Program-made: the position numbers and the translations under genes
IMG/VR virus record: IMGVR_UViG_2617270964_000016
Span: 1 to 37,320 of that record
Length of the DNA stretch: 37,320 nucleotides
Strand: one strand, 5' to 3'
From: a virus
Lineage: Duplodnaviria; Heunggongvirae; Uroviricota; Caudoviricetes
Notes under the pieces: model-generated
What the model saw: only the letters and a program-made list of their open reading frames with translations
Told to the model about the DNA's origin: nothing
Database searches by the model: none
Shown: positions 2,723 through 5,071 of the stretch, in pieces
How positions within the stretch are numbered: the stretch's first letter is position 1
Layout of the letters: each line of letters opens with the position of its first letter

Positions 2723-2914
2723 CTATTTCACCTTAATCTCAACATTTCGCAGCTTTAGCTCTACTGGCAGGTCTGACTTTCCGGTTAATGCTAATGCGAG
2801 ATTTTCTGGAGTAATGAGAGCCGTTATTGTTTTCCCCATCGCCAGACGAATAATCATTCGTATCTCGCGATCGTCACATGCTCCCGGCCGAACGATTGAT
2901 ATTTGTCCGTCCAT
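2723..2914 (-). CDS. Hypothetical small protein (63 aa)
   Basis: Track ORF 2723-2956. The internal ATG at 2914 has a strong AAGGAGAG Shine-Dalgarno, so the shorter product MDGQISIVRPG... is preferred. Confidence 0.35.
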   Translation of the reverse strand: MDGQISIVRPGACDDREIRMIIRLAMGKTITALITPENLALALTGKSDLPVELKLRNVEIKVK

Positions 2915-2915
2915 C

Positions 2916-3425
2916 TCACTCTCCTTTGATGCGAATGCCAGTAGCGCGGATTGCATCGATGACTTCAGAAACTTTGTATGCCATTACCGTTTGGTAATCA
3001 TCGTGAAAATCTGTTCGATGAAGCATGCTGCTACGTTCCGGGAGCCGTATTTCCCGTGCTTCCAGTTCTGCTATGCGCTTCTCTGCGGCTTCCAGCTTGG
3101 CTTCTGCATCTTTGGCTCGCATCTGCCAGTTGATAGCGATGTCGATAACGCTGTTAGCACAACTGGACTCATTCTCTTCGGCTGCTTTAGCTTCAGAAAG
3201 CTCATCAAGCAATCCAAGAACAACAGTTGGCGTGGCGAGCGTGATAAAACGCATATTGCTCATATGCTCTTCATCGCTGACCTCATCTCCAGCCTCGACC
3301 GCTGCCATGTGCTGAACATAGCCGCTATCACAGGTATTCCAGATTGCCCCTGCCTCGTAACCCCATTCACCATGTAGTGCTTTTTCTGCCGCCTCACGCA
3401 GTGCCTGGTAATTAATTTTGCTCAC
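2916..3425 (-). CDS. Ea22-like coiled-coil phage protein
   Basis: GTG start at 3425 preceded by AGGAGG. Contains AEAKLEAAEKRIAELEARE coiled-coil segment shared with the next gene. Confidence 0.45.
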   Translation of the reverse strand: MSKINYQALREAAEKALHGEWGYEAGAIWNTCDSGYVQHMAAVEAGDEVSDEEHMSNMRFITLATPTVVLGLLDELSEAKAAEENESSCANSVIDIAINWQMRAKDAEAKLEAAEKRIAELEAREIRLPERSSMLHRTDFHDDYQTVMAYKVSEVIDAIRATGIRIKGE

Positions 3426-3930
3426 TGACTGCCTCCTTCTTAATCAGTTTACACAGGTGCTCCACAGCCACAGAGAGTGCATCCACCGCTCGTTTATCCA
3501 GACGCGGGGCCAGAGCAAGCAGTTCATTTATTGCAATCTGAATACCATGCTCCGCCGCCAGCGCCGCGCGATTGCTCTCCAGCTCTGCAATGCGCTGTTT
3601 TGCGGCATCAAGTTCAATCGATAATTTTTCCAACTGCTCTTTATGCTTCTTATATTCCTGATATGCGTGCCAGGACTGACCTTTGCGCACACTATCAGTA
3701 ATATCAGTAATCTGTTCTGGTGTTAGCGTGGTCAGTGGCTGTGCTGGGAAAATCAGCACTTTCCCGGAATCCCAATCAAAACCAGCGTGAATTGACTGAA
3801 CCTCAACTGAGGGTGTTGAACCAATGCTGCCAGGCGAATGAACAACGATCGTTACATCCATATCGCGACGATGGCTGTGGTTGTTGGACAAAATACGATT
3901 CACCAACTCAGAAAATTTGGAGAATTTCAT
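3412..3930 (-). CDS. Hypothetical phage protein, paralogous coiled-coil module (Ea22-like)
   Basis: ATG at 3930 (MKFSKFSELV...) with GAGG Shine-Dalgarno. Segment LDAAKQRIAELESNRAAL parallels the neighbouring gene. Confidence 0.4.
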   Translation of the reverse strand: MKFSKFSELVNRILSNNHSHRRDMDVTIVVHSPGSIGSTPSVEVQSIHAGFDWDSGKVLIFPAQPLTTLTPEQITDITDSVRKGQSWHAYQEYKKHKEQLEKLSIELDAAKQRIAELESNRAALAAEHGIQIAINELLALAPRLDKRAVDALSVAVEHLCKLIKKEAVSEQN

Positions 3931-3938
3931 GCGGAGCC

Positions 3939-4349
3939 TCAATATGCAAAATAGACCGTTGCCACGCCGTTATAGTGATCAAACGATACGGCGTTTACTT
4001 CATAGCTGGCAGGGAGCTTCGAGCCGAGAACATATCCGGGCCACGTTTTCCATGGAATTTCTCTATTCTCACTACCCCCATATACCGTACATCCAAGTGA
4101 ACCTACAGCCTCGTCAGAACGTTTGCCGCATGTTATGAAACCTATATTTTTCTTGCCGGTCTTAATGGCGATTGGGTGAACGCTGGCTGATGCATTGGCA
4201 GCACGCTGTGACTGTTGGTTTGCGATATTCGCAGAGTTCGCAGCAGCTACAGCAGCCGTGGTCGCGGCGGTAGATGCCACAATAACTGCTGAAGCCTGCG
4301 CCTGTTGGGTAATGGTCAGCAATGCCGCCACAAAAATCATCTTCTTCAC
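3939..4349 (-). CDS. Secreted/periplasmic small protein with cleavable signal peptide
   Basis: GTG 4349 with AAGGAG Shine-Dalgarno gives MKKMIFVAALLTITQQAQA-SAV, a classical n/h/c signal peptide with AQA cleavage motif. Low-complexity Ala/Thr region, then a Cys-containing C-terminal domain. Confidence 0.4.
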   Translation of the reverse strand: MKKMIFVAALLTITQQAQASAVIVASTAATTAAVAAANSANIANQQSQRAANASASVHPIAIKTGKKNIGFITCGKRSDEAVGSLGCTVYGGSENREIPWKTWPGYVLGSKLPASYEVNAVSFDHYNGVATVYFAY

Positions 4350-5071
4350 TTGTCAGCTCCTTTGCGAATCTGTTCCGCCCATTCTTCAAGGGATTTCTCC
4401 GCATATTCACCGGACAGGCCATCAATCGGGTGCGGTTCATTAGCCAACTCTTCTTTCGCTGACAGAATCATGCGCGTAACGTCGAAAACTTCACGTAAAG
4501 ACTTATTGATAAATCCGTGGTTGAAAGCAGCAGCAAGACGGCTGGCGGTATAGTTAATCCCCTCGTTGCGTGCTTCCGAACGAATTTCAGCAAGGCATTT
4601 GCGAAACTCGGAAACGTACTGTTCGACGCTCATTCCCCAGCTAAGTGGACATTCATTGAATGTTTCGCCTTCGTGCTCTTCATCAGGTAGCTCTTTGGTA
4701 AAGAACTCACGCTCAATGGCGTGGAGTGTGTCAGCAAAACGACGTAAGTTACTCAAACCTACCGTAATGGAGAATTCAGGAGCATCACATCCGACGCCCA
4801 TCTGCTGATAAACGGCGGTTTTGAAGGTCTTAAGCCCCGCATTCTCCGCCGCCAGCGCCGAAAACTTCTCATGTGCCAACTTAACAGCCGCATCAGCCTG
4901 CTTAATTGACTCAATCGCTCTCTGGTGGTCTTCGGATAGAGCCGAAATCTTGGCCTCCGCTTCAGCAAATTTACGTACTAGGTACTCAGCATTTGTTTCG
5001 TTCACTTTCAGATCTCGCGGTACACATTTCCCGCGAAGAAACCCTTCCATTTCGAAAACATTCATGCGCAT
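4346..5071 (-). CDS. Hypothetical phage protein (241 aa)
   Basis: Long ORF in the operon frame with stop/start overlap on both sides. No recognisable motif. Confidence 0.4.
   Translation of the reverse strand: MRMNVFEMEGFLRGKCVPRDLKVNETNAEYLVRKFAEAEAKISALSEDHQRAIESIKQADAAVKLAHEKFSALAAENAGLKTFKTAVYQQMGVGCDAPEFSITVGLSNLRRFADTLHAIEREFFTKELPDEEHEGETFNECPLSWGMSVEQYVSEFRKCLAEIRSEARNEGINYTASRLAAAFNHGFINKSLREVFDVTRMILSAKEELANEPHPIDGLSGEYAEKSLEEWAEQIRKGADK

Follow-up and report, generated by a model that had tools for sequence, protein, structure and literature searches.

Ea22-type modular genes in a candidate variable slot of the early-left region of an SfV-like prophage

The stretch of DNA analysed here (the window) comprises 37,320 nucleotides (nt), positions 1 to 37,320 of IMG/VR record IMGVR_UViG_2617270964_000016, a virus of the class Caudoviricetes. 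Our subject is a block of genes at 2723-5071, all on the minus strand, which we name g5, g4, g3, g2 and g1 in order of transcription. A first-pass annotation had described it as five uncharacterised early-left genes, including a paralogous coiled-coil pair. The block is indeed filled by five consecutive open reading frames (ORFs), and because all five products match PHROG families (phage proteins with no assigned function) we take them to be real genes. We regard it as probable that the block is a hypervariable accessory slot in a leftward early operon under repressor control, that the phage is temperate and SfV-like, and that the slot is occupied by Ea22-type modular genes. The five genes are:

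4346-5071, minus strand: g5, 241 residues; ATG at 5071; 10-nt overlap with the stop of the yfdR-like gene upstream
3939-4349, minus strand: g4, 136 residues; GTG at 4349 overlapping the g5 stop (GTGA); AAGGAG 8 nt upstream
3412-3930, minus strand: g3, 172 residues; ATG at 3930, 8 nt past the g4 stop
2916-3425, minus strand: g2, 169 residues; GTG at 3425; AAGGAGG 6 nt upstream, inside g3; 14-nt overlap with g3
2723-2914, minus strand: g1, 63 residues; ATG at 2914, one base past the g2 stop; AAGGAG 6 nt upstream

Read on the minus strand, every start in the block is preceded by a Shine-Dalgarno (SD) sequence and overlaps or abuts the upstream stop, and 2 nt separate the end of g1 from the start of the next gene, which encodes a DUF551 protein. 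The genes are packed closely and coupled in translation. The smallest gene had been given as 2723-2956, which is too long: PHROG 1222, the function-unassigned family of small proteins to which g1 belongs, spans only residues 15-77 of the 77-residue form starting at 2956. We place the start at ATG 2914 because of the AAGGAG upstream, the PHROG 1222 coverage and a RefSeq homologue of 63 residues. The ATG at 3930 was correctly assigned to g3, being preceded by GAGG; a TTG start at 3942 was rejected because it would overlap the stop of the upstream gene. An antisense ORF at 2814-3377 (plus strand, 187 residues) was also rejected as a gene, as it lies wholly within conserved minus-strand genes and has nothing in its support. 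Scans returned no Rfam RNA family in or near the block and no tRNA.

Three of the products, g2, g3 and g5, have the build of phage lambda Ea22 (an N-terminal segment, a central coiled coil and a distinct C-terminal domain), as judged from chimeric relatives and from a heptad scan that finds a central segment in each protein (residues 95-128 in g2, 91-127 in g3 and 25-76 in g5). The relevant segments are:

4349-4594, minus strand: C-terminal domain of g5, residues 160-241, which travels with g4
3550-3660, minus strand: heptad (coiled-coil) segment of g3, ending at the homology breakpoint ...AALAAE
3559-3612: LDAAKQRIAELESNRAAL, residues 107-124 of the g3 product
3395-3425, minus strand: start region of g2, GTGAGCAAAATTAATTACCAGGCACTGCGTGA, corresponding to the Sf6 'bsq3' boundary sequence
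3042-3143, minus strand: heptad (coiled-coil) segment of g2
3051-3107: AEAKLEAAEKRIAELEARE, residues 107-125 of the g2 product
2913-2939, minus strand: 27-nt gene-boundary sequence GGCATTCGCATCAAAGGAGAGTGAGAT, encoding GIRIKGE and the stop and holding the g1 SD sequence AAGGAG at 2921-2926
2921-2929: AAAGGAGAG, encoding K-G-E and carrying that SD sequence

g2 is a member of the Ead/Ea22 family. It matches Pfam PF13935 (Ead_Ea22) with 57.1 bits (cutoff 27; E = 3.8e-15) over residues 2-121 against profile positions 1-123, and matches lambda Ea22 over the N terminus and coiled coil (E = 2e-11). The protein consists of a MSKINYQALREAAE N terminus, the heptad helix, a swapped C-terminal domain of 43 residues and a terminal GIRIKGE. 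Identity to the g2-like protein of a related prophage (L001) stops at residues 126-127: the N domain and helix are retained to residue 126, 43 residues are swapped, and the last eight codons are conserved again. With lambda Ea22 and the Ea22 variants V1-V3 of Shiga toxin (Stx) phages (PF13935, IPR025153, encoded in the exo-xis region) g2 has in common the MS(K/E)INxQALREAAE N terminus, the LLDE segment, the KRIAxLE helix, GIRIKGE and identical 3' DNA. The resemblance extends to the three-part build with a swappable C-terminal domain and to the presence of variants side by side in one genome within the leftward early operon; published Ea22 genes are mosaics, of which one genome can carry two or three variants (PMC7093339, PMC10834534). 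The terminal K/R-G-E tripeptide that is a feature of Ea22 is present in g2 only (IKGE), g5 ending in KGADK and g3 in SEQN.

g3 carries a PmgU-like N domain (residue 1 to about 90-108, PHROG 6026) on a long helix followed by a rare short helical tail. Its residues 5-117 align with positions 1-120 of the 121 in PHROG 6026 (E = 7.6e-55), and no similarity is detectable between this domain and the Ead_Ea22 N domain of g2. Identity to PHROG 6026/PmgU proteins such as LUZ7 gp066 and LASTA gp41 is 41-55%, and the conserved motifs SPGxIGxTPSV, GFDWD, LTPEQ and GQSWHAY are all present. N4-like phages of Pseudomonas (LUZ7 gp066), phage Dolphis and Aeromonas phages encode the domain on its own, as a protein of 110-137 residues; in Serratia phage Parlo and in Klebsiella phage LASTA it is part of a longer protein, and it bears the label 'pmgU domain' in one Ravinvirus record. 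In lytic phages PHROG 6026 proteins occur nearly alone beside replication and recombination genes, whereas in enterobacterial prophages the domain is fused to Ea22-type helices and C-terminal domains. The LUZ7 gp066 gene (L055, 1501-1866) directly follows genes for a Sak4-like annealase and a single-stranded DNA-binding protein and precedes an N4 gp46-like gene, a neighbourhood that hints at a link between the PmgU-like domain and DNA replication or recombination. The literature yielded no functional data under the gene names 'Ea22-like' and 'pmgU'.

Among 5.8 billion proteins searched, 1165 are relatives of g3. The closest are identical to it through ...LDAAKQRIAELE(G/S)N(R/C)AALAAE; homologues have residues 1-128 in common and then continue into at least ten different C-terminal domains. 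Many homologues pass the Pfam Ead_Ea22 threshold over the helix and the part that follows it (38.9 bits, residues 106-183 against profile positions 75-138). In two proteins (P0273 and P0269) the g3 N domain is followed by a helix of g2/lambda type and by a C-terminal domain whose last residues are GIRIKGE. In an AlphaFold2 (AF2) model of g3 built from 47 sequences, with a mean predicted local distance difference test score (pLDDT) of 69.6, the helix at residues 87-139 is confident (pLDDT 76-92), as is the tail.

g5 (4346-5071) belongs to the same modular set, a membership that the first-pass annotation missed. It is made up of a YfdS-type N module (residues 1-45), the heptad helix containing FSALAAENAGLK, which is the same joint motif as in the g3 family, a rare middle part and the C-terminal domain; a second heptad-like helix spans residues 147-169. 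The first 45 residues are 89% identical to YfdS of Escherichia coli K-12 (E = 2e-26), with no match beyond. The C-terminal domain is 38% identical to that of proteins with a g3-type N domain (P0083; E = 2e-14) and about 98% identical to that of a protein whose N domain is Ead_Ea22 (L040); a further protein with an Ead_Ea22 N domain (L036) matches the C-terminal part of g5 over a longer stretch, at 55% identity. The Ea22-type helix is combined with at least three N domains between which no similarity is detectable (Ead_Ea22, PmgU-like and YfdS-like) and with a dozen or more different C-terminal domains. The PmgU-like and YfdS-like N domains of g3 and g5 replace the Ea22 N domain of the lambda and Stx proteins, an exchange not described in PMC10834534 or PMC7093339.

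The two coiled-coil peptides that had been quoted in support of a g2-g3 pair both exist (AEAKLEAAEKRIAELEARE in g2, LDAAKQRIAELESNRAAL in g3). BLASTP of g2 against g3 returns a single match of 13 residues (LEAAEKRIAELEA versus LDAAKQRIAELES, E = 0.006 for one comparison), and the best Smith-Waterman alignment covers 19 residues with a score of 47 (z = 2.8) that 22 of 1000 shuffles reach (p ~0.02). A profile-profile comparison of the two families with hhalign is not significant (probability 0.4%, E = 0.16). Taken alone, this direct similarity is barely above chance at the sequence level and does not establish homology. The case for a shared segment comes instead from the family-level evidence, which shows that the peptide is the conserved central or linker helix of the Ead/Ea22 architecture.

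If g2 and g3 were true paralogues, one Ea22-like gene would have been duplicated in tandem and the coiled-coil match would be the last remnant after divergence. The two genes are adjacent and similar in length, the matching peptide begins at residue 107 in each, tandem Ea22 variants are common (V1 and V2 occur within one genome; PMC10834534), and hhalign weakly pairs Ea22 N-domain motifs with those of g3. Duplication is nevertheless highly improbable, given a similarity of 13-19 residues at marginal significance, the hhalign result, the independent and widespread occurrence of the g3 N domain (alone, as a protein of about 110-137 residues, in lytic Pseudomonas, Aeromonas and Serratia phages) and chimeras that show module-wise exchange. 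Because the direct similarity is so short and so marginal, the term 'paralogous pair' was overstated; the description of the genes as modular and Ea22-like stands, on the Pfam match of g2 and on the chimeras. Since the chimeric proteins (P0273, P0269, L036 and L040) join the parts in other ways, the parts are exchanged as modules, and the relation of g2 to g3 appears to be one of domain shuffling on a shared helix, involving three genes and no gene duplication. The weak hhalign pairing aligns VHTPGD...GFD...NPE of some Ead_Ea22 N domains with VHSPGS...GFDWD...TPE of PmgU-like domains (E = 0.16, not significant); a very remote shared ancestry may have left this trace.

To map the breakpoints, DNA matches of at least 85% identity from 49 viral loci around g4 homologues were placed on the window; 45 loci matched. 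Of these 45 loci, all chosen for containing g4, 29-44 share a block from ~3550 to ~4600 that takes in the g3 N domain and helix, the entire g4 gene and the C-terminal domain of g5. At ~3550 and ~4600 coverage drops from 29-35 loci to 0-2. On the left the edge falls where the g3 helix ends, and on the right where the g5 helix at residues 147-169 starts. It is the sharpness of these edges that is informative. The opening 45 codons of g5 stay linked to yfdR instead, in 10-13 loci. No record among 50,697 phage records and 5,426 complete E. coli genomes covers at least 80% of 2600-5200, so this combination is absent from those collections; its single parts are common.

The middle gene of the shared block, g4, encodes a predicted signal peptide (MKKMIFVAALLTITQQAQA), an alanine-rich linker and a domain of about 75 residues with two invariant cysteines. 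It has no match in Pfam, and its family is narrow: a full HMMER scan of 1.84 billion proteins gave 17 clusters (50% identity), all in enterobacterial prophage-type contexts. Of these matches the three long ones (P0303, P0306 and P0307) were rejected as low-complexity or immunoglobulin-repeat artefacts. One member is named 'prophage exported protein' in UniRef, and g4 may be exported to the periplasm.

The linkage of these segments could in principle reflect co-function, the g5 C-terminal domain, exported g4 and the g3 N domain forming a three-part unit around a periplasmic protein, expressed from the prophage and serving superinfection exclusion or envelope modification. The segments do stay linked in 29-44 of the 45 loci while their flanks vary, and g4 combines its predicted signal peptide with a conserved disulfide-type domain and the UniRef name of its relative. 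Recombination joints in the flanking helices explain the linkage more simply, however, and in 6 to 10 loci (L021, L023-25, L038, L039 and L041) g4 occurs with no neighbour of g3 or g5 type. The g4 model is unusable, no homologue of g4 has a known role and no separate promoter for lysogenic expression was found. We give a functional unit of this kind very little chance. On the reading we favour, the cassette moves as a single DNA unit spanning three reading frames, while the g5 N module stays with yfdR and the tails of g3 and g2 vary; the helix and the gene-end sequences would serve as joints for homologous recombination.

The gene ends are the second place at which homology breaks. The sequence GGCATTCGCATCAAAGGAGAGTGAGAT at the g2/g1 junction is identical in lambda ea22 (L052, 1048-1075). 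It is matched in 314 phage records, where two adjacent annotated genes often cover it. In lambda the ATG that would follow reads ATC and no gene follows, and the sequence is kept nonetheless. At distinct junctions in loci L003-L047, the majority of Ea22-type products terminate in ...K-G-G-x-Q or ...I-K-G-E. The DNA behind these endings is AAAGGAGG or AAAGGAGAG, its common form being AAAGGAG(A/G), and it lies 6-8 nt before the next start, which is either a GTG overlapping the stop or an ATG just past it. The significance of the terminal '+GE' tripeptide of Ea22 is listed as unexplained (PMC7093339). The simplest reading of the sequences, we infer, is that '+GE' is the ribosome-binding site of the next gene combined with a boundary sequence, so that gene ends would double as ribosome-binding sites. 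Recoding AAAGGAGAG as AAGGGCGAA, for example, would retain K-G-E while destroying the SD sequence.

Boundary sequences of this kind have reportedly been described for the early-left 'ea/hka' regions of P22-like phages (HK620, Sf6 and P22), by Clark et al. in 2001 and Casjens et al. in 2004. In the window, as in the P22-like phages, short conserved gene-start and gene-end sequences flank unrelated gene bodies, and the g2 start has its counterpart in the Sf6 GenBank record, where a feature named 'bsq3; boundary sequence' marks the beginning of the Ea22-like gene 21. Unlike those phages, the window also has putative joints of a second class inside reading frames, in the coiled-coil segment, and therefore exchanges whole protein domains in addition to whole genes. 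The DUF551 protein downstream of g1 is itself mosaic, its N-terminal, middle and DUF551 parts matching separately, at 27-67% identity, in related loci; Ea22 variant V2 and YfdS likewise have DUF551 as their C-terminal domain. The shuffling system therefore reaches beyond 2723-5071.

The first-pass annotation placed the block in an early-left operon, and this placement is supported by a promoter beside a cI-like gene, a shared operator repeat and a gene order as in the Shigella phage SfV. The features of the surrounding region are:

8356-8375, 8373-8392 and 8406-8425: three operator-like copies between the cI-like and cro-like genes
7637-7654: predicted terminator after the cI-like LexA-family gene (7666-8340), with the pL-like promoter directly beyond
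7600-7627, minus strand: predicted pL-like leftward promoter, TTGACA, 16 nt, CATAAT (11 of 12 matches)
7602-7621: operator-like 20-mer TATGTATCTCAAGGGTACAT, overlapping the pL-like promoter
5062-5661, minus strand: yfdR-like gene for an HD-domain 5'-deoxynucleotidase, directly upstream of g5
1959-2720, minus strand: gene for the mosaic DUF551 protein, directly downstream of g1
1387-1962, minus strand: gene for an Rv2179c-like 3'-5' exonuclease
1078-1377, minus strand: gene for a PrtN-family protein
1039-1066: predicted terminator, a strong bidirectional hairpin of 12 pairs that closes the leftward gene string

The operator-like inverted repeat TGTAYC-N6-GGTACA is present in four copies in all, which are predicted to be repressor binding sites; their distribution over the pL-like promoter and the cI-cro interval is the classical lambdoid layout. 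Leftward from the promoter the genes run yfdP-, yfdQ- and yfdR-like, then the five-gene block, the DUF551 gene, the exonuclease gene and the PrtN-family gene, and form one tightly coupled string from the pL-like promoter (7627-7600) to the terminator (1066-1039). Between 7600 and 1066 just one terminator-like site exceeds three G-C pairs, a stem of 5 bp that lies within g5 (4723-4708). About 600 nt on the minus strand between the promoter and the yfdP-like start (6995-7600) hold no convincing ORF and no Rfam match; they could be a regulatory leader or antitermination element. The corresponding part of the SfV record carries annotations for orf33 and for a second terminator.

Positions 9000-33900 are 97% identical to the serotype-converting phage SfV over 95% of their length, and the window is an essentially complete SfV-like prophage, with a lambdoid early region and Mu-like contractile-tail genes. 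Its main difference from SfV is the accessory slot at 2723-5071. SfV has the gene order cI, orf33, yfdP, yfdQ, yfdR and then only orf29 and orf28 before xis, and the K-12 prophage CPS-53 likewise has two short genes after yfdR (yfdS and yfdT), from which we conclude that the block is a variable cargo slot of the early-left operon. The likeness to CPS-53 yfdQ-yfdT and SfV orf31-orf28 includes the upstream yfdP, yfdQ and yfdR (proteins 94-100% identical in related loci), the YfdS N module with which g5 opens and the position of the slot ahead of the excision genes. In place of two short genes the window has five, together with the DUF551, exonuclease and PrtN-like genes, and no YfdT homologue is present in it. 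Compared with lambda, in which ea22 has exo/bet/gam and orf60a/61/63 for neighbours, the window has yfdP, yfdQ and yfdR.

Two observations concern regions outside this string. Within the rightward early region, on the plus strand, an isrK Hfq-binding small RNA (9583-9659, 61 bits in Rfam) is immediately followed by a C4 antisense RNA (9684-9771, 81 bits), a pair that corresponds to the antirepressor control module of P1/P7 type. At the left end of the window, also on the plus strand, the product of 1-474 resembles antitoxins of SocA/Panacea type (NCBIfam NF047745, E = 1e-27, a score under the curated cutoff) and that of 496-1044 is a protein of 182 residues with an acidic N-terminal region and hydrophobic C-terminal segments. 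These two genes may form a toxin-antitoxin or abortive-infection module; in the related prophage L001 their slot holds a YafO toxin.

Ea22 of lambda and Stx phages forms tetramers that favour lysogeny and host survival, and its deletion shifts the outcome toward lysis, making it pro-lysogenic (PMC7093339, PMC10834534). YfdR binds DnaA, and overexpressed yfdQ and yfdR together with yfdS or yfdT inhibit initiation at oriC (PMC4776307). By analogy with these systems, g2, g3 and g5 might form coiled-coil oligomers whose variable end domains engage partners from host or phage soon after infection or induction, tuning the choice between lysis and lysogeny, and g5, which has a YfdS-like start and follows yfdQ-yfdR, might join the YfdR-DnaA pathway that damps initiation at oriC.

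Several results weigh against this reading of the block, in whole or in part. Neither g3 nor g5 matches Pfam Ead_Ea22 at E ≤ 0.1 or reaches any Pfam threshold. The YfdS part common to g5 is only 45 residues long, with no full-length likeness to YfdS, and the DUF551-like tail of CPS-53 YfdS is absent from g5, in which Pfam finds no DUF551 match. Structure prediction, which had been proposed as a check, succeeded for the g3 helix and gave models too poor to use for the g3 N domain (pLDDT 50-60, too low for a fold) and for g4 (28 homologues, mean pLDDT 46.8). The choice of loci inflates coverage near g4 in the breakpoint map. Transcription from the pL-like promoter is predicted, and the ~600-nt leader (7600-6995) could hold termination signals, as in the SfV annotation. 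No domain in the block has a known activity. Searches with g2, g3 and g5 against the solved C-terminal domain of lambda Ea22 (8DSX) gave nothing but noise at E ≤ 1, whereas lambda Ea22 itself matches 8DSX at 1e-51; the C-terminal domains differ, and the lambda phenotype may therefore not transfer. With these points in view we hold the anatomical and evolutionary account of the block with high confidence, and offer its functional part (oligomers tuning the developmental outcome, with g5 in a DnaA route) as a tentative suggestion that may well be wrong.

That none of the five genes has a recognisable catalytic motif, as first proposed, agrees with searches of Pfam, NCBIfam, PADLOC and PDB. NCBIfam gave no match for the five genes, PADLOC none except a match to PbeC (E = 0.0095) that falls on a helical stretch, and PDB sequence and profile searches (g2, g3 and g5, and family profiles of the g3 N domain and g4) nothing significant. 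These results bear on the suggestion that the five genes are host-takeover or anti-defence factors, such as inhibitors of restriction, RecBCD or abortive infection, whose C-terminal variety stems from an arms race. Their early position in the leftward operon would suit such a role, as would the very rapid turnover of the C-terminal domains, the known takeover genes (anti-RecBCD, Kil and CIII) in the same string of the related prophage L002 and the DNA-modification or DUF551 genes that adjoin in both LASTA and the window. Yet no product resembles a characterised anti-defence protein, PADLOC model, Pfam or NCBIfam family or solved structure, and the only family members studied experimentally, lambda and Stx Ea22, act on the lysis-lysogeny balance and not on restriction (PMC7093339). 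Strong mosaicism is equally expected of any dispensable accessory gene between boundary sequences, and an anti-defence role strikes us as unlikely.

A bolder proposal, which we consider distinctly unlikely, is that the Ea22-type central helix would be a universal docking scaffold, on which g2, g3 and g5, as proteins of one predicted operon with related helices (RIAELE and ALAAE motifs), could form mixed oligomers and so supply combinatorial adaptors from a few genes; were this true, '+GE' would be no protein feature and would be the footprint of the downstream SD sequence and a recombination boundary sequence.

The block is a new combination within a known kind, the mosaic Ead/Ea22-type accessory genes of lambdoid early-left operons. 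It is no new kind of system, and function can be assigned to it by analogy at most. Mosaic Ea22 genes have already been published, and the novelty here is modest, consisting of the exchange of N domains on the Ea22 helix and the SD/boundary explanation of '+GE'. For annotation, g2, g3 and g5 are best read module by module, as domain-swapped Ea22-type proteins, and not as orphan hypotheticals or a duplicated pair. The '+GE' motif of the family acquires a simple nucleic-acid explanation that is open to test. The published picture of Ea22 mosaicism is extended from exchange of the C-terminal domain to exchange of the N domain, and the Ea22 family is tied to the yfdQ-yfdR (DnaA-binding) cluster of SfV/CPS-53-type prophages.

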